Shown here piece by piece: positions 412 through 26,628 of a stretch of DNA of 28,488 nt. Under the pieces are notes generated by a model that saw only the letters and a list, made by a program, of their open reading frames with translations, ran no database searches and was not told where the DNA came from. Each line of letters begins with the position of its first letter. The first letter of the stretch is position 1. The stretch is from the NCBI GenBank assembly GCA_045604545.1, contig JAZUOG010000083.1:1-28488 (forward strand), given 5' to 3'. The stretch comes from Acutalibacteraceae bacterium (GTDB lineage: Bacteria; Bacillota; Clostridia; Oscillospirales; Acutalibacteraceae). Both the position numbers and the translations under genes were made by a program.

Positions 412-487
412 CTGTCATTGCGAGGGCGCACAAGCGCCCGTGGCAATCTTCGCAGAAAGATTCTTGCGCTTCGCTCAGCATGACAAG
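412..487 (+). repeat. Module B copy 1: 76-nt imperfect palindrome (REPIN-like), second copy at 17225-17300
   Basis: Outer arms tgtcat.../...atgaca, an inner hairpin gggcgc-acaa-gcgccc, and a central aatctt-cgcaga-aagatt hairpin. ~90% identical to 17225-17300. Confidence 0.55.
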
Positions 488-6618: not shown

Positions 6619-6692
6619 TGCGGAATCGTGTAAGGGTAGCACTACGGCCTCTGACTCCGTCTGTCTAGGTTCGAATCCTAGTTCCGCAGCCA
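6619..6692 (+). tRNA. tRNA-Gln (anticodon CTG) with encoded CCA
   Basis: Manual cloverleaf. Acceptor tgcggaa/ttccgca (7 bp). D-arm gtgt-aagggta-gcac. Anticodon stem acggc/tccgt with loop cTCTGac. T-arm ctagg-ttcgaat-cctag. Discriminator G, then CCA. Architecture matches Firmicutes tRNA-Gln. Confidence 0.85.
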
Positions 6693-6879
6693 AAAAACGG
6701 TCATCGCTTTTGCGATGGCCGTTTTTACTGTCTGCTTCTAGGATTCGAAAGGGGCGTTAAGAAAACGTCACGGTGTGACGTTTTTAGCCCCGTTGGAGAT
6801 GAAGAGACTGCCGATTTTACATGTACCAAAAGACGAGATCAAAACTACCTCCTTGATAAAACACCTAGTTCCGCAGCCA
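6693..6879 (+). repeat. Tandem unit U1 (187 bp): terminator, T-arm-like fragment, internal hairpin, then a 16-nt copy of the tRNA-Gln 3' end
   Basis: Ends in cctagttccgcagcca (6864-6879), identical to tRNA positions 6677-6692. The internal A-run/hairpin/T-run lies at 6762-6785. Confidence 0.7.
6698..6726. terminator. Bidirectional intrinsic terminator T1 after tRNA-Gln
   Basis: A-run, then stem cggtcatcgc/gcgatggccg with loop tttt, then ttttt. Confidence 0.8.
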
Positions 6880-7180
6880 AAAAACGGTCATCGCTTTTGC
6901 GATGGCCGTTTTTTCTGTCTGCTTCTAGGATTCGAAAGAACCGAGCAGCGAGCGCGTCCGGGGGACGAAACAGCGAGCGCGGAGGGCTGTGCAGCAACGC
7001 GATTTTGCAAGCCGCAACCCTTTGCGGCGCAGAAAAATCGAATGTTGCAAACGTTAGTTAAGAAAACGTGCCAGGGGCACGTTTTCAGCCCCGTTGGAGT
7101 TGAAGAGACTGCTGTTTTTGCTTGCACCAAAAGACGAGATCAAAACTACCTCCTTGATAAAACACCTAGTTCCGCAGCAA
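6880..7180 (+). repeat. Tandem unit U2 (301 bp): same architecture as U1 plus a 103-bp GC-rich insertion; ends in the tRNA 3' copy cctagttccgcagcAa
   Basis: Begins with a T1-like terminator at 6885-6914. The internal hairpin at 7063-7085 differs from U1 by two compensatory base-pair changes. The 3' tRNA fragment is at 7165-7180. Confidence 0.7.
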
Positions 7181-7216
7181 AAAAACGGTCATCGTTGTTG
7201 CGATGACCGTTTTCTT
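7179..7216. terminator. Bidirectional terminator T3 (third copy), also terminating htpX on the minus strand
   Basis: aaaaaaa, then stem cggtcatcg/cgatgaccg with loop ttgtt, then tttt. The htpX stop lies 13 nt away. Confidence 0.75.
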
Positions 7217-7228
7217 GCTGTATTCGGA

Positions 7229-8179
7229 TTATTGCATGGGGTTGTCGAAGGCGGGAGCGGGCTCGCTCCGGGTGGCCTCGACGGCGGCAACGGCACTCAT
7301 TTCCTGCAGACGGCGCACACGCTCGCCGTTGTCGGGGTGGCTGGATTCCAGCGCGGCGAACAGGCCGTCCTTGCCGTGACCGGTGCCGAAGCTGGCGAGC
7401 ACCTCGCTCAGCGAGGGACCGTAGCCGCATTGATGCGCATAGGCGTCCGCTTCGTATTCGTTCCGGCGGCTGGTGGCCATGACGAGCCACACGCCGAGCT
7501 GTGTCCATGCACGCATCATCAGCACCAGCAGGAAGTCAGCGACCACGCGGGAGATGCTGATGAAAATGGACGCAACGACACCGCCCCAGCCTCTGCTGAA
7601 TGCCGCGGTGCAGAACTCGCCGATCCACATCATGACATTCGCGACCACGCGAACAATGACGAAGATGGTTGTCACGATCAGGTTGCCCACCGCAACGACC
7701 AGCACGTTGTCGGTGTCCTTGTGAGCAAGGTGACCGAATTCGTGTGCCATGACGCCTTTGATCTGCTCGTCGGAATAGTTGAGCAGGCCGCGGGTCACGC
7801 AAAGCGTTTTGCGACCGGTTGCGAAGGCGTTGGGCTCTTCATCGTCGGACAGGAACATCTGAATCTTGTCGTTGAGCTCGGGGTTGAGCGTTTTGGCGTT
7901 GGCATACACCTCGTCAAACAGCGGTTGCAAACGGTTGAGCACCTCTTGATCGGTGATCTTTTTGCAGTGGCTCTGCAGACGCAGGATCCATTCGCCGATG
8001 GGCGACAGGGCGATGGCGAAGGACGCCGCATAGATCAGAAAGCCCCAAAGAGCACCCATCCAGTCGGTGTAGAAACCGCTGAACAGCGCGGTGATCAGCA
8101 GGATGTTGAGCACCATCCAGATGATCAGACCGGTGTTGCTCTTCTTGAACAGGTTTTTGAAGAAGTCGACAACGTACAT
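7229..8179 (-). CDS. htpX: Zinc metalloprotease HtpX (peptidase M48)
   Basis: HEFGH zinc motif, NAFATG motif and two N-terminal TM segments. Start at MYVVDFFKN with RBS agaggag (the ORF-track start 8224 lacks an RBS). Confidence 0.85.
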   Translation of the reverse strand: MYVVDFFKNLFKKSNTGLIIWMVLNILLITALFSGFYTDWMGALWGFLIYAASFAIALSPIGEWILRLQSHCKKITDQEVLNRLQPLFDEVYANAKTLNPELNDKIQMFLSDDEEPNAFATGRKTLCVTRGLLNYSDEQIKGVMAHEFGHLAHKDTDNVLVVAVGNLIVTTIFVIVRVVANVMMWIGEFCTAAFSRGWGGVVASIFISISRVVADFLLVLMMRAWTQLGVWLVMATSRRNEYEADAYAHQCGYGPSLSEVLASFGTGHGKDGLFAALESSHPDNGERVRRLQEMSAVAAVEATRSEPAPAFDNPMQ

Positions 8180-16592: not shown

Positions 16593-17006
16593 ATGGAACT
16601 GTCAAATGAAAAGGCACTTGCCGTGGAATGGCGTAAACTGAGAACCCTGCTCACCACCAACAACAAGCTGGAATACGAGTTGTTTAAAAAGGTGTTCGAG
16701 GAGACCAGAGACCTGTTGTCGTCCTGCGCGACGGCAACCGCCATCGACAAAAGCTACATGAACGTGATCGTGGAAGCCTACAAGTTCAGCGGCACTGACG
16801 GTGCTTACAAGGACGCAAAGCCGCAGGCGGCGCTCATCATGACCGAGCGTATGCTGCAGCATTATGTCCTTGACAGCCATGTCGGCGACGTGCGCAGCGG
16901 TGTGTATGTGTATGTGCTGGAAGCGAAGGAAGAGATCTACATTGACTTTGAAAATGTGGACACTTCCATCGCCGTTCTCGGCCGCGCTCTGGAGAGACGG
17001 TATTAA
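16593..17006 (+). CDS. Hypothetical protein (137 aa)
   Basis: RBS aggag 16581-16585, with the ATG at 16593 preferred by spacing. 22 nt after the upstream gene, so likely co-transcribed. Confidence 0.6.
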   Translation: MELSNEKALAVEWRKLRTLLTTNNKLEYELFKKVFEETRDLLSSCATATAIDKSYMNVIVEAYKFSGTDGAYKDAKPQAALIMTERMLQHYVLDSHVGDVRSGVYVYVLEAKEEIYIDFENVDTSIAVLGRALERRY

Positions 17007-17224
17007 GGGCAGGGATAAGGGCAGGGATATCCGCGACATCTGTCGCGGGTGATATTCGCACTACGTGCGAGTGATATTTGCCCCGCGGGCAAGTGAAATG
17101 TTGCTGTCGCAACGTGAAGGAGTCCGCTTCGCGGACGGATCGCCCTCTCAGTCTCGCTGACGCTCGACAGCTCTCCCATGGGGAGAGCCAAGGCGACCGC
17201 CTGTCGCGAGACCACCACCCAACT
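17007..17224 (+). repeat. Hairpin array: direct repeat gggcagggata x2, then four ~22-nt units (GTGAWAT + variable GC hairpin), then a nested multi-stem domain
   Basis: GTGA at 17049, 17071, 17093 and 17114. The hairpins are cgcac-tac-gtgcg, gcccc-g-cgggc, gttgc-tgtc-gcaac and gtccgc-ttc-gcggac. An outer stem gtctcgc...gcgagac encloses gctctccc-atg-gggagagc (17170-17188). Confidence 0.6.
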
Positions 17225-17300
17225 CTGTCATTGCGAGGGCGCGTAAGCGCCCGTGGCAATCTTCGCAGAAAGATTCTTCGCTTACGCTCAGAATGACAAG
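17225..17300 (+). repeat. Module B copy 2 (the GNRA loop gtaa replaces acaa)
   Basis: Aligns to 412-487. The differences are confined to the loop and a short segment of the 3' arm. Confidence 0.55.
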
Positions 17301-17519
17301 GGGGAGGCGATCAGCCTCTCACAAATTCTGCACCAATATGGGGGCAACCGTTGCCTCCCTTGCCTAAAGGGAGGTGGCACGAGCGTATGCGAGTGACGGA
17401 GGGATTCTTTTTGTGTACCGAAAACCACGCGTTAAACGCGTGGTTCAGTGAAGGCTATGCCGATGAGTAAAAAACACGGCTCTCCCTTTGGGAGAGCTGT
17501 CAAAACCGTAGGTTTTGAC

Positions 17520-17788
17520 TGAGAGGGCTTATACAGAACAGCCTCATTTAGTGGCGGCGTATACAGTAGAAGTGATCGGTCTGCTTAAATTCCCCACTCA
17601 ATGTGTTGATGGTTATCACAAGCCCTCTCCGTCATGGCCTACGCCATGCCACCTCTCCCAGAGGGAGAGGCAAGAAATAACTAAATACGCGGCTGGCAGA
17701 CTGTATTACGCGTTCTACGCGGAGGCTACGGAACAGAGGGCTATGCCCGCAAAAGAAAAACCACCCGTTTTACGGGTGGTTTCTTTTT
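17520..17788 (+). repeat. Module A copy 2, ending in a bidirectional intrinsic terminator
   Basis: ~97% identical to 1-272. Terminator ccacccg-ttttac-cgggtgg followed by tttcttttt (17761-17788). Preceded by the 9-bp hairpin gtcaaaacc-gta-ggttttgac. No convincing sigma-A promoter lies immediately upstream. Confidence 0.6.
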
Positions 17789-17802
17789 GCGTATAGGGGA
17801 GA

Positions 17803-21575: not shown

Positions 21576-22211
21576 TTATGCTGTGATTGGTGTGGCTTCG
21601 GCACCGAAAAGGGAGAGGGATTCCTCAATAGCTTCGGCGGATTCGGCACGGAACTCGTCGTACAGAAGGAAGTGACAGTTTGCCGTGACGCTGTTGTCAT
21701 CGCCGCGGGTAAACACCACCATGACGGGTGTGGCATTGTCGAAGGTGTAGATGTAGACGGTGTTGTCTGTCATGTCATCGCTGACGAAGGTTTTGCGTGT
21801 CGCACACACGGAGGAGATCGCCATGGCGTTCAGACCGGCTTTGGCGTTGATCCATGACGGAACGGATTCATACGCCCGCGCGATCATATAGGCTTCGTAT
21901 TGCTCGGGAACATCGTTCGGAAGCGTAATGCTCAGTTGTGTGAACAGCATCTCTTTTTGCAATGTCACCTCGTACACCGCTTTAGGGGTGGTGTGATCCT
22001 CGCCGGCGAGTGCGGCGAGCGGCTCTTTATACTCCTCTGTTGCGGAGGAGAAGAATGCTTCGGGATAAAGCGCCGTCTGCTTCATGTAGGGGATGAGATT
22101 CAGACCGCGCTGGTAAAGCGACACGGAGGGCGCAGCACTTTCGCAGGCGGAGAACAGCATGACGCTTGCAAAAACAGCAATGGCTGTGAGTATGGCAATG
22201 AGACGTTTCAT
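21576..22211 (-). CDS. Lipoprotein (212 aa)
   Basis: MKRLIAILTAIAVFASVMLFSAC. RBS aaggag. The start region and upstream junction are duplicated at 22541-22605. Confidence 0.65.
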   Translation of the reverse strand: MKRLIAILTAIAVFASVMLFSACESAAPSVSLYQRGLNLIPYMKQTALYPEAFFSSATEEYKEPLAALAGEDHTTPKAVYEVTLQKEMLFTQLSITLPNDVPEQYEAYMIARAYESVPSWINAKAGLNAMAISSVCATRKTFVSDDMTDNTVYIYTFDNATPVMVVFTRGDDNSVTANCHFLLYDEFRAESAEAIEESLSLFGAEATPITA

Positions 22212-22237
22212 AATCAAGAACTCCTTTTGTGGTGGGT

Positions 22238-22573
22238 TCAGCCGCCGCGGCCGGGGCCGAAGGCGGCGCTGACGGCAACACCGTCTTGGTCGAAATGGAC
22301 GCTCAGTCCGTAAGGATAACCCGAGAAATCGAATTCTTCGTACGACCAGAGGCGACAGCTTGATGCCATGTAGCTGTCCTCGTGGTCAAAATAGGCACAG
22401 TTGGGCTTGCCGAGCCTTCCGAAAATATCGTTTTTGGTGAGTGTGTCGCCATCGTTAATATCCTCGGCGATATCCTCCATTGCGCGGTAGTCGGCGGATT
22501 GCAACAGCGATTCGACACTGCAACCGCTGAGTAACAGCAAGGCGGCCGTGAGTATGGCGATGAGACGTTTCAT
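22238..22573 (-). CDS. Small lipoprotein, tandem paralog 1
   Basis: MKRLIAILTAALLLLSGCS. C-terminal FDFSGYPYGLSVHFDQDG...GPGRGG is shared with 22600-22944. Confidence 0.65.
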   Translation of the reverse strand: MKRLIAILTAALLLLSGCSVESLLQSADYRAMEDIAEDINDGDTLTKNDIFGRLGKPNCAYFDHEDSYMASSCRLWSYEEFDFSGYPYGLSVHFDQDGVAVSAAFGPGRGG

Positions 22574-22599
22574 AATCCAAAACTCCTTTTGTGGTGGGT

Positions 22600-22944
22600 T
22601 CAGCCGCCGGGGGCGGGTTCAAATTCGGCGGCAACGGTCAGCCCGTGTTCATTGAAATGAACAAGCAGGCGGTAGGGAGAGCCCGAAAAATCAAACACTT
22701 CATAGCGCCAGTTCCATGAGGTTGCTTCCATATGGTCACCGCTGCCGTCGGCATAATCGGGTGCACCGATTTTCTGTGTGACCTCAAATTTGGTCAATGA
22801 TGCACCGTTTTCAATCGTTTGAGCAAAAGCCTTCAGTTCGCGGTAACGCGAAGATTGAAGCAGGGAATCACCGTCACAGCCGCCGAGGAACACCGAAAGA
22901 ACGAGTGCTGTCATGCACAAAACGGAAAGGATACGGATCGTCAT
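22600..22944 (-). CDS. Small lipoprotein, tandem paralog 2
   Basis: Start MTIRILSVLCMTALVLSVFLGGC with RBS aggagag. C-terminal FDFSGSPYRLLVHFNEHG...PAPGG. Confidence 0.6.
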   Translation of the reverse strand: MTIRILSVLCMTALVLSVFLGGCDGDSLLQSSRYRELKAFAQTIENGASLTKFEVTQKIGAPDYADGSGDHMEATSWNWRYEVFDFSGSPYRLLVHFNEHGLTVAAEFEPAPGG

Positions 22945-24737: not shown

Positions 24738-25645
24738 GATGCGTCACCTCCTGCAAGAGAAGCAAAGTCATAGTTGCGCGCCTGCAGCTCATAGGTAAAG
24801 ACCTCTTCAAGCGTCAGCGGCAGAATTTCCAAAAGAAGCGGCGACAGCTCGCGTAGGTGCGCTTCCGTTTCCTCACGGTTGCCGTTCATGATGAGCTGTG
24901 CGACTGCGCCTTGCTGATGATAGTGCATGATGGGCAGTCGGTCGAAGCGGGAACGGTCAAAGCTGTCGGCAAACGCGATCTGCACCTTGAACACGTTGGT
25001 CTTCAGATCGGTGACATCCTGCTCCAGTACGATGCCGCCCTGATGAAGAAGGGCAAGCTGATCGCACATATCCTCAAGCTCACGAAGCGAGTGGGACACA
25101 ACGATCGCCGAGGTGCCGCGGGCGGTGATATCATCGATGATCATGTTTTTCACGATGTGGCGCATGATGGGGTCGAGTCCGTCCATCGTCTCGTCAAACA
25201 GGATCAGCTTCGGTTTGACCGACAGCGCCAGTGCTGTTGAGGTCAGGCGGCGCATACCCTTCGAAAAGGTGGAAATAGAACGTTTGCGGGGGAGACGAAA
25301 CTGTTCAAGCAGGACATTATAGCGTTCCTCGTCAAAGAAACGGTAGCTCGCTTTATACAGCTTTGCCATTCTCTCCACGGTGGCGTTATGTAAAAAATAC
25401 AGATCATCGGGCACAAACACCAGGTTGCTTTTGGCGTGGGGATTTTCATAAAGCGGCTGTCCGTCAAAGGTCAGCTCGCCCTCATCGGGGCGATAAATGC
25501 CGCAGATGGTGCGCAGAAACGTGGATTTACCGGCACCGTTGGAGCCGACAAGACCGTAAATACAGCCGTCGGGCACGGTGCAGGAGACGTCGTTCAATGC
25601 AGTGACATCACCGAAGCGTTTGGTGATATGCTGTGCTTTCAGCAT
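24734..25645 (-). CDS. ABC transporter ATP-binding protein
   Basis: Walker A GSNGAGKST, signature FSKGMRR, Walker B LILFDE. Confidence 0.9.
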   Translation of the reverse strand: MLKAQHITKRFGDVTALNDVSCTVPDGCIYGLVGSNGAGKSTFLRTICGIYRPDEGELTFDGQPLYENPHAKSNLVFVPDDLYFLHNATVERMAKLYKASYRFFDEERYNVLLEQFRLPRKRSISTFSKGMRRLTSTALALSVKPKLILFDETMDGLDPIMRHIVKNMIIDDITARGTSAIVVSHSLRELEDMCDQLALLHQGGIVLEQDVTDLKTNVFKVQIAFADSFDRSRFDRLPIMHYHQQGAVAQLIMNGNREETEAHLRELSPLLLEILPLTLEEVFTYELQARNYDFASLAGGDAS

Positions 25646-26022
25646 GAGGAGTCGCTCCTTTCGGAATAGATTTCGTCAATAAGGCAGAGAAGGTCTTCCT
25701 TCGGGATCCCTGCCAGCTTCATATCCTTCACCATGTCGGCAAAGGCGGTCAGACGGTCGCGGCTTTGGGCTTTGAGCGCCTTTGCGGCTTCTGCCGCAAC
25801 AAAGCACCCCTTGCCGGGGACGGCGCAGAGAACGCCCTTGGAACACAGGTCGTTATACGCCTTCTGGACGGTGTTGGGGTTGATGGCAAGCTGACACGAT
25901 AAGGCGCGCACCGAGGGGAGCTGAGCCCCTGCTGTCAGCACGCCGATCAGGATCAGCTTTTCCACCTGTGTGGTCAGCTGCTCATAAATCGGTACACGCG
26001 ACATCGGGTCAATCGAGAACAT
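25639..26022 (-). CDS. GntR-family transcriptional regulator, YtrA subfamily (short C-terminus)
   Basis: Winged-helix VPIYEQLTTQVEKLILIGVL...LPSVRALSCQLAINPNTVQKAY. RBS aaggaggg. First gene of the ABC operon, as in ytrABC. Confidence 0.85.
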   Translation of the reverse strand: MFSIDPMSRVPIYEQLTTQVEKLILIGVLTAGAQLPSVRALSCQLAINPNTVQKAYNDLCSKGVLCAVPGKGCFVAAEAAKALKAQSRDRLTAFADMVKDMKLAGIPKEDLLCLIDEIYSERSDSSC

Positions 26023-26044: not shown

Positions 26045-26103
26045 CAACTGTACTATGTGAACTAGTACAGTTAGACTATAACACGGTGAATGATGTTTGT
26101 CAA
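26045..26103 (-). promoter_or_regulatory. Autoregulatory region: promoter TTGACA-17-TATAGT (minus strand) followed by a perfect 10-bp inverted repeat AACTGTACTA-n7-TAGTACAGTT
   Basis: -35 at 26098-26103 and -10 at 26075-26080. The palindrome at 26045-26071 lies between the -10 and the RBS of the GntR gene. Confidence 0.6.
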
Positions 26104-26163: not shown

Positions 26164-26628
26164 ATGAACACATTGCCGAATCGAAAGCATAATCGCCTGC
26201 AAGGGTACGATTATCGAACAAACGGTGTCTATCATGTGACGATATGCACAAAAAGAAACGCACCTGTGCTGTGCCGCGTCGTAGGGCGGGCAGACCTCTG
26301 CCCGCCGCAGGTGATGTTGACAAAGCTTGGGACGATTATTAAACGATATATTATGTCTATCGAAGGCGCCTATGATGATATCACTGTTGTGAAGTATGTC
26401 ATCATGCCGGATCATATTCACCTGTTGTTGGTGTTGAACGGAGCGCAGGGGTCTGCGCTCCCTACGGTCAGTAAAGTAGTCAAAGCACTGAAGGTTATGG
26501 TGCGCAAGGAGACCGGATATTCGTTTTTTCAAAGTTCTTTTTACGACCACATTATCCGCTGTCAACAGGACTATGACGCAACATGGGAATATATCGACAA
26601 CAATCCGCTCAAATATAAGGGGAGGTGA
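26164..26628 (+). CDS. IS200-like Y1 HUH transposase of the REP-associated tyrosine transposase (RAYT) type
   Basis: 154 aa. GYDYRTNGVYHVTICTKRN (beta1), HUH motif MPDHIHLLL, and C-terminal SFYDHIIR...DYDATWEYIDNNPLKYK, matching the RAYT catalytic-Tyr helix. Its stop overlaps the uvrC RBS. Confidence 0.8.
   Translation: MNTLPNRKHNRLQGYDYRTNGVYHVTICTKRNAPVLCRVVGRADLCPPQVMLTKLGTIIKRYIMSIEGAYDDITVVKYVIMPDHIHLLLVLNGAQGSALPTVSKVVKALKVMVRKETGYSFFQSSFYDHIIRCQQDYDATWEYIDNNPLKYKGR

Follow-up and report, generated by a model that had tools for sequence, protein, structure and literature searches.

An inverted pair of TGTC-tagged hairpin units, repeated on an Acutalibacteraceae contig, and its relation to the RAYT gene of the same contig

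What kind of repeat is B, a 78-nt palindromic element that occurs twice on an Acutalibacteraceae contig, and is it moved by the transposase gene carried on the same contig? The stretch analysed here, referred to as the window, is the whole of contig JAZUOG010000083.1 (28,488 nt; assembly GCA_045604545.1), and the gene at 26164-26628 encodes a REP-associated tyrosine transposase (RAYT), REP standing for repetitive extragenic palindromic sequence. A sequence-only reading of the window had joined the two, taking B for a REPIN (REP doublet forming a hairpin) that is mobilised by this RAYT. We favour a different answer: B is a head-to-head (HH) heterodimer of a TGTC/CGTC-tagged, REP-like family that is copied or homogenised occasionally, and the RAYT of the window serves another set of hairpins, tagged GTAGG. 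We put the probability of this reading at roughly 0.7.

Anatomy, setting and orthology of the B doublet

A repeat search of the window, which is one 28.5-kb contig of the source genome and to which all counts of B refer, recovers two 78-nt copies on the + strand, B1 at 412-489 and B2 at 17225-17302. They are 90% identical without gaps, much as first estimated, and 93.6% identical (73/78) in a gapped alignment with two single-base indels; the copies differ at two bases of the loop (AC vs GT), by a deletion plus an insertion in the right arm and by a single C/A substitution. Chance falls far short of explaining a 78-nt pair that matches at 90% or more within 28 kb. Outside the unit the copies have in common only a short CACCCA immediately upstream, identity stops at AAGGG, and the flanks are otherwise unrelated. 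The longer repeat of the window, module A (270 nt; 1-270 and 17520-17789; 97% identical), does not include B, and lies 141 nt upstream of B1 yet 217 nt downstream of B2. B stands by itself, apart from module A, and is not a piece of one longer repeat that would join the two.

Each copy consists of two hairpin units, inverted relative to one another and separated by a 6-nt spacer. In the predicted single-stranded DNA (ssDNA) folds, whose z-scores are only moderate (-1.9 and -2.8), an outer stem TGTCAT/ATGACA encloses an inner hairpin, GGGCGC-NNAA-GCGCCC, and a central one, AATCTT-CGCAGA-AAGATT. The stems named in the sequence-only reading are thus all present, but they do not form the single continuous hairpin that it described. 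Both left arms read TGTC-ATTGC-GA-(GGGCGC-NNAA-GCGCCC)-GTG-GCAAT-CTT. In B1 this unit spans 413-450 (+; 37.8 bits, E=2.4e-8 with our covariance model R1), with the TGTC tag at 413-416, a lower stem ATTGC 417-421/GCAAT 443-447, an internal loop GA 422-423/GTG 440-442, the apical hairpin GGGCGC-ACAA-GCGCCC at 424-439 and the tail CTT at 448-450. The spacer CGCAGA (451-456) is, in the predicted fold, the loop of the central AATCTT/AAGATT hairpin, and it is followed on the opposite strand by the right unit (457-485, -; R1 rank 4, 9.2 bits, E=1.6), TGTC-ATGCT-GAG-CGAAGCGC-A-AGAAT-CTT, an ATTCT-type sister of the left unit with one lower-stem mismatch and otherwise like its counterpart in B2. The left unit of B2 (17226-17263, +; 38.3 bits, E=1.8e-8) is again ATTGC-type, with apical GGGCGC-GTAA-GCGCCC, and in its right unit (17270-17298, -; R1 rank 3, 15.6 bits, E=0.03), TGTC-ATTCT-GA-(GC-GTAA-GC)-GA-AGAAT-CTT, the lower stem ATTCT/AGAAT pairs completely.

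When the whole window is scanned with R1 without filters, the two left arms rank 1-2 on the + strand and the two right arms rank 3-4 on the opposite strand, and no further B-type copy is found. From this orientation we conclude that B is an HH heterodimer with its tags outside: TGTC opens both left arms (413-416 and 17226-17229) and, read on the minus strand, the two right arms as well. Because R1 was trained on ATTGC-type units only, the right arms are under-scored; they were recognised as ATTCT-type by a later dinucleotide-complement analysis. That the right arm is an inverted unit of the same family also explains an earlier observation, itself correct, that the right-arm patch CGCTTACGC of B2 is the exact complement of GCGTAAGCG in its left hairpin, the patch being the mini-hairpin of the right unit. 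B is thus two inverted REP-like units, and its size and geometry are REPIN-like, as had been proposed.

The two copies lie in different surroundings. B2 is situated within a hairpin-rich stretch of ~750 nt that runs from the stop codon at 17006 to a bidirectional terminator at 17758-17782, and is for that reason probably transcribed as a 3' untranslated region (3'UTR). B1 lies between the terminator at 243-259 and a strong sigma-70-like promoter match of the CotH/dockerin gene (515-542, +; TTTACA-16-TATAAT, with TG; consensus match only), which begins 25 nt past the end of B1, bearing out the proximity noticed from the sequence.

An orthologous B exists in a related species. The 137-aa protein encoded directly upstream of B2 is 86% identical to P0122, a homologue carried by four JGI/ENA contigs (L142-L145); downstream of P0122 come the same array of the Gut-1 RNA motif, the same CCCTCAGTC...GGGAGCC module and then a B doublet. 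This doublet has kept the tags, lower stems and centre, but its apical hairpin is of another class (GAGCGCAAGCGAC). Since B stands at the same locus in both species, it has been kept there since they split. Identity to the orthologous B is 83.1% for B2 and 81.8% for B1, as against 93.6% between B1 and B2, and this excess of paralogue over orthologue identity indicates a later duplication or homogenisation of B1 and B2, within the lineage of the window. The order of modules around B differs between the two species, and the 83% of the orthologue is, judged by eye and not computed, not visibly above the identity of the neighbouring hairpin modules.

These observations bear on the possibility that B is a selected cis element, with B2 acting as 3'UTR RNA that stabilises or processes the operon transcript and B1 as a structure that modulates the CotH promoter. 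We consider this unlikely. It would fit the retention of B2 at an orthologous position before a terminator, the structural conservation of the hairpins and the strong promoter match so close to B1, as well as the description of REPs in other bacteria as mostly downstream of genes and often transcribed, in the text of the survey by Di Nocera, De Gregorio & Rocco (2013, PMC3733652). However, a promoter-proximal site for B1 and a 3'UTR-like stretch for B2 are unrelated contexts, the sequence of the orthologue does not, by eye, stand out from its neighbours, the module order around B varies between species, and units of the same family recur in many unrelated contexts and phyla, as described below. 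No T-run follows B1 or B2, and Rfam gives no match on either copy at gathering thresholds or at relaxed E values up to 5-10.

The unit family and its relation to CGTC-type REPs

Scanning IMG/VR with the pattern GTCATTGCGAG-N(8-30)-GCAATCT returned at least 120 matching loci, many of them multi-copy. Among the matches listed there are 208 instances, to which the following counts refer. Their interiors comprise 150 distinct sequences, and interior stems of at least 4 bp are found in 66 of the 208, compared with 5 of 208 after shuffling. The base at position -1, which the pattern does not force, is T in 153 and C in 40, giving a TGTC tag in 74% and a CGTC tag in 19%; the base at +2 is C in 142, and the tail, CTT in B, is CTC in most family members. 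On its 3' side the internal loop reads GAA in 115 instances, GTG in 62 and GCG in 16. An ungapped alignment of 28 distinct instances has both-sided changes at 6 of the 7 pairs of the apical helix, with a covariation score of 0.388 (shuffles 0.103; slid controls at most 0.135). The lower stem covaries as well, across sister subfamilies: ATTCC..GGAAT is complementary in 38/54, ATTCT..AGAAT in 15/29 and ATTAC..GTAAT in 4/10, and the ATT/AAT stem base is invariant throughout. The consensus of the unit is an unpaired (T/C)GTC tag, a 5-bp ATTNN/NNAAT lower stem, a purine-rich GA/GNR internal loop and a C-T-Y tail, topped by an apical hairpin that is free in sequence and in which pairing is kept.

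This family is widespread across several phyla and in IMG/VR viral contigs. With the exact left arm and any tetraloop, 14 loci were found in GTDB representative genomes, belonging to Faecousia/Oscillospiraceae metagenome-assembled genomes (MAGs; 1-3 matches each) and to delta-proteobacterial and Chloroflexota MAGs; all 14 are singlets, none has the B centre and none is a doublet. The generic 33-nt unit occurs in unannotated DNA of plasmids, alpha-proteobacterial and cyanobacterial ones included, from Methylosinus, Methylocystis, Calothrix, Aulosira and Halomonas. The exact B centre, GCAATCTTCGCAGAAAGATT, has no match in IMG/VR and two chance matches within coding sequence in JGI metagenomes; no further B doublet turned up in these scans. 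Among 277 units in viral loci most are singletons, the remainder including 16 HH, 20 tandem and 6 tail-to-tail arrangements, and no clear strand bias relative to genes emerged from 230 instances, a noisy comparison made with crude open reading frame calls.

Sister units with a TGTC tag keep company with these. On five IMG/VR contigs (L012, L065, L078, L096 and L106) units of the forms ATTCCCGC-N4-GCGGGAAT-CCA (dRS3-like) and ATTCC-GAG...CGAG-GAAT co-occur with ATTGCGAG units, and several such contigs hold 4-7 units, often no more than ~20 nt ahead of what looks like a ribosome-binding site with its start codon.

Other identities for B were tried and rejected. ARAGORN did not call the 76-nt B as tRNA-like; no ribozyme is among the Rfam matches; and on inspection the GAG...CGAA/CGTG segment departs in spacing or core bases from a sigma-54 promoter, a kink-turn and a hammerhead-like core. 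Literature searches with DNA words of the motif returned primer matches only, and those with peptides of spurious reading frames across it returned nothing.

The closest described relatives are the REPs of the CGTC superfamily, one of two into which REPs have been divided, the other being tagged GTAG (PMC3733652). As portrayed in the text of that survey, CGTC REPs often have TGTC as their tag, begin their stem with A-T at positions 1 and 2 and end in a short tail; they are mostly HH dimers, with heterodimers frequent, and "apparently lack a dedicated transposase". CGTC-1 is there equated with dRS3 of Neisseria, the superfamily also includes RPE-4/RPE-6 of Rickettsia, and it is known from five phyla, mostly from alpha-Proteobacteria; a search of the survey's text finds neither Firmicutes nor Clostridia named. 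B units share with these REPs the unpaired TGTC tag and the A-T/T-A start of the stem, and have a tail at the corresponding position, although of another sequence; B as a whole is, like them, an intergenic HH heterodimer with no associated transposase gene. Canonical CGTC-1/dRS3-like units (TGTC-ATTCCCGC-N4-GCGGGAAT-CCA) moreover share loci with ATTGCGAG units. There are also differences. The described CGTC families have a continuous 8-9-bp stem, a 4-5-nt loop and a CCA tail. In B units, by contrast, a 5-bp lower stem and a conserved GA/GNR internal loop carry an apical hairpin that varies freely in both sequence and length, and the tail is CTY; and whereas CGTC REPs are mostly HH dimers, the family sampled here consists mostly of singletons. 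Given the bipartite stem and a comparison made with text descriptions only, we class B as a variant and not as a member of the four described families.

If B is indeed an HH heterodimer of such a family, its units would act as single-strand hairpins, either as DNA during replication or as RNA where transcribed. A trans-acting factor, encoded elsewhere than beside them, would recognise them by the invariant tag and stem base and would copy or homogenise units only occasionally, with the apical hairpin drifting through compensatory change between such events. Effects on neighbours, such as RNA structure at the 3' end in the case of B2 and DNA structure upstream of the CotH promoter in the case of B1, would be secondary.

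Several points weigh against this reading. No mobilising enzyme for B was identified. Neither an empty site nor a target duplication was seen: the contig of the 97% CotH orthologue breaks 17 nt upstream of the ATG, so that an empty site for B1 was not found there, and the upstream regions of the 76% and 66% CotH orthologues are short and unrelated. The higher identity of the paralogues could come from gene conversion instead of transposition. Related Oscillospiraceae DNA chosen without regard to the motif, about 86 kb in all, is without any unit, so the family may be sparse here. The link to the CGTC superfamily is set by a description in text, and the stems described differ from the bipartite stem of B. 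Finally, the four singlets within 8 kb of a dense Oscillospiraceae locus (L128) are all intergenic and co-oriented with genes, and may point to a role at the RNA level.

A more far-reaching possibility is that the TGTC-ATTNN-GA...GNR-NNAAT unit is an orphan cross-phylum hairpin, of ssDNA or RNA, that is read by a widely conserved enzyme through its tag and stem base, with the apical hairpin left to vary. The hosts spanned by the unit (Firmicutes, Proteobacteria, Cyanobacteria, Chloroflexota and many IMG/VR viral contigs) would accord with it, and candidates for the enzyme would be a Y1/HUH subclass without a known REP partner or a host factor. We regard this as a long shot.

The RAYT gene and its GTAGG hairpins

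A RAYT-like gene is present where the sequence-only reading had placed it (26164-26628, +), its product carrying the motifs DHIH (as HUH) and YIDNNP and its end overlapping the start of uvrC. Against the NCBIfam model REP_Tyr_transpos the product scores 54 bits, below the cutoff of 80, and the match to Pfam Y1_Tnp is weak; a profile of 25 homologues has E. coli TnpA-REP (4ER8, E=6.8e-12) as its best PDB match, with IS200/IS605 TnpA at ~3e-4. The motifs are DHIH (NHIH in some homologues), FQ (WQ in the family consensus) and YIDNNP. For TnpA-Y1 subclass 2.4 the published motifs are [N/D]H[IFV]H, WQ and YIxNNP, and its cognate REPs are long GT[AG]G hairpins with a G-C-rich stem base (Quentin et al. 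2018, PMC6006769). An in-frame REP insertion within the gene is a feature unique to that subclass (PMC6006769), and the RAYT of the window has two: a GTAGG hairpin at 26281-26306 (+; GTAGGGCGGGCAGACCTCTGCCCGCC), which encodes VGRADLCPP, and a second, inverted one just past the HUH motif at 26440-26465 (-; GTAGGGAGCGCAGACCCCTGCGCTCC), which encodes GAQGSALPT. By its motifs and these in-frame hairpins the gene fits subclass 2.4 (Bertels Group 4).

The same layout is found in relatives. Six RAYT homologues were compared (L135, L136, L137, L150, L152 and L129): five carry an inverted GTAGG pair within the gene and the sixth (L129) has one hairpin inside and one directly downstream. The stems of in-gene hairpins are alike within one gene and different between genes, and copies of the in-gene hairpins, exact or nearly so, stand at five other places in 20 kb of L152. 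Since REPs inside subclass 2.4 genes have already been described (PMC6006769), the in-gene hairpins are not in themselves a novelty; what would be new here are their two fixed positions within the gene and the absence of flanking REPs. Like the subclass 2.4 described in that paper, the window RAYT combines the characteristic motifs, long GT[AG]G hairpins and in-frame REPs. Unlike it, the window RAYT and its homologues lack flanking REPs, sit tightly in housekeeping operons (RAYT-uvrC; hflX-RAYT) and have hairpins on both sides of HUH, where subclass 2.4 has them between HUH and Y only. An hflX-like GTPase gene tightly precedes the homologue in L135 and L136; in L137 the homologue lies between a gene for a helix-turn-helix regulator and a convergent FTHFS gene.

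Upstream of the RAYT gene lie a GntR-type palindrome and promoter-like sequence, and downstream is the overlap with uvrC; no repeats flank 26164-26628 on either side. The palindrome, AACTGTACTA-N7-TAGTACAGTT at 26047-26073, is perfect and stands between a divergent GntR-family gene (25639-26022, -) and the promoter-like sequence of RAYT-uvrC. It is a likely GntR operator, which would place RAYT-uvrC under a GntR-family regulator.

GTAGG-tagged hairpins also stand directly upstream of B1 as an inverted pair, at 304-329 (+; GTAGGGGACGGCCTCAACGGTCCGCC) and 349-374 (-; GTAGGGACCACCGTCCCCGGTGGTCC), and the ACCACCG hairpin, of the 349-374 type, recurs near-identically at a different locus in the related contig L146 (~1356). 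The hairpins at 304-374 are canonical GTAG-type REPs and likely RAYT substrates.

That B should be a REPIN mobilised by the RAYT at 26164-26628 seems very unlikely in the light of these data. The idea has attractions: the inverted doublet is of about the right size, a RAYT that looks catalytically plausible from its motifs lies on the same contig and is the only transposase-like gene found in the window, and the closer identity of B1 to B2 than of B2 to its orthologue speaks for some copying or conversion. The REPIN-RAYT systems described by Bertels & Rainey (2011) and by Bertels et al. (2017, PMC5581495) likewise have two inverted palindromic units with a short spacer, an intergenic location, copying or homogenisation within the lineage and a single-copy RAYT. 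However, REPINs are GT[AG]G-tagged, flank their RAYT and number tens to hundreds of near-identical copies, whereas B is tagged TGTC, stands away from the RAYT, was seen twice in 28.5 kb and belongs to a family with highly diverse apical hairpins. It was to be expected of a mobilising RAYT that B-like units would flank the gene in relatives, but no such unit came to light in the 10 kb on either side of the homologues in L135-L138 and L152, nor on L150, a shorter contig. The 134 motif-bearing loci listed (1.14 Mb) include a single RAYT homologue (L129), ~5 kb from a B-type unit. What the RAYT genes do carry is GTAGG hairpins, and those dispersed near the gene in L152 are again GTAGG and not B-type. 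Because B is without the GT[AG]G tag of subclass 2.4 cognates, B units are missing near RAYTs and the in-gene and dispersed hairpins are GTAGG, the link between RAYT and B is not supported, and the part of the sequence-only reading that had the RAYT mobilise B does not stand. Judged by tags and positions, this RAYT most likely services GTAGG hairpins and not B.

Filamentous prophages use dRS3 units in Neisseria, and IS110-family elements target REPs. B-type units might by analogy be target or attachment sites of a site-specific recombinase or an insertion sequence (IS), which would find a suitable recognition sequence in the invariant tag and stem base. The equation of related CGTC-1 units with Neisseria dRS3 in the text of PMC3733652, and the ISPpu9 copies inserted in REP sequences that PMC8450116 reports, lend this some plausibility. 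Yet no IS, integrase or prophage border was found beside B1, B2 or the orthologue, and such a role would account for the use of the units and not for their origin or spread; we think it highly improbable. That B arose as a chance pair of palindromes, or through an error of assembly, can safely be dismissed: the contig does begin exactly at a repeat (module A), a sign of repeat-affected assembly, but the 78-nt copies are at least 90% identical, hundreds of family members exist elsewhere, and the independent orthologous copy in four JGI/ENA assemblies refutes the idea.

Mosaic surroundings of B and wider meaning

E. coli BIMEs (bacterial interspersed mosaic elements) and Neisseria NIMEs (Neisseria intergenic mosaic elements) are mosaic REP clusters of short palindromic modules in variable order. 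The window presents a comparable mosaic of mixed palindromic modules (Gut-1, CCCTCAGTC...GGGAGAG, GTAGG REPs and B) whose order varies between species, although the module families differ from those of BIMEs and NIMEs. As an HH heterodimer of a tagged hairpin family, B would be one module type in such REP-cluster-like mosaics, which fill long intergenic or 3'UTR-like stretches, beside GTAGG REPs, Gut-1 and other hairpins.

Some of these neighbours deserve description in their own right. The Gut-1 RNA motif (RF01706) is matched at 53-58 bits (gathering threshold 50) at 17047-17125 of the window, at 1505-1586 and 6952-7030 of L142 and at 1114-1196 of L146. Each match starts within ~45 nt past a stop codon, the hairpins are joined by GTGA(A/T)AT, and the stems have compensatory changes between orthologues; by its position in these related gut-metagenome contigs Gut-1 is apparently a 3'UTR element. 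A hairpin module of the form CCCTC-N-GTC-hairpin-...CTCTCCC-loop-GGGAGAG occurs at 103-154, 17140-17190 and 17622-17673 and in the flanks of L126 and L128; it is contained in module A and also immediately precedes B2 and the orthologous doublet. Its module-A copies match Whalefall-1 weakly (~17 bits; gathering 37), and in L128 its reverse form comes after the B-type singlets. Module A ends in a bidirectional terminator (243-259; 17758-17782). Its first copy starts exactly at the contig end, so that the assembly was probably interrupted by this repeat, whose full length may exceed 270 nt; L147, the contig with the 97%-identical CotH, breaks in the same region. Downstream of B2, two hairpins at 17423-17496 give a sub-threshold match to STnc490, an Hfq-binding small RNA (30.9 bits, gathering 56; E=4e-4), which is probably mere hairpin similarity.

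Further repeats lie elsewhere in the window. A tRNA-Gln gene occupies 6619-6692, and its last ~16 nt, with a terminator-like hairpin, occur three times as 75-nt units at 6677, 6864 and 7165; a 157-nt repeat overlies this region (6756-6912 and 7057-7213; 89% identical). The tRNA-Gln repeats (6619-7239) could be att-site remnants or a tandem duplication. A 188-nt direct repeat (22182-22369 and 22544-22731; 74% identical) lies among small minus-strand reading frames (~21.0-23.3 kb) that are without a Pfam match and may be tandem paralogues.

The distinctions drawn here have practical consequences. Hairpin mosaics of this type break metagenome assemblies, as at the end of this contig, and yield spurious open reading frames, and the structural consensus and covariance model of the unit can be used for genome-wide censuses and for an enzyme search. 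In gut Clostridia two adjacent repeat systems are now separated, a GTAG-tagged one with a plausible enzyme and a TGTC-tagged one without. If the bipartite-stem branch is confirmed, the orphan CGTC superfamily extends to Oscillospiraceae and to IMG/VR viral contigs; and should the unit prove to be an orphan element read by a conserved enzyme, the recent copying of B on a contig with no transposase-like gene besides the subclass 2.4 RAYT would offer a route to the enzyme behind 'CGTC REPs without a transposase'.

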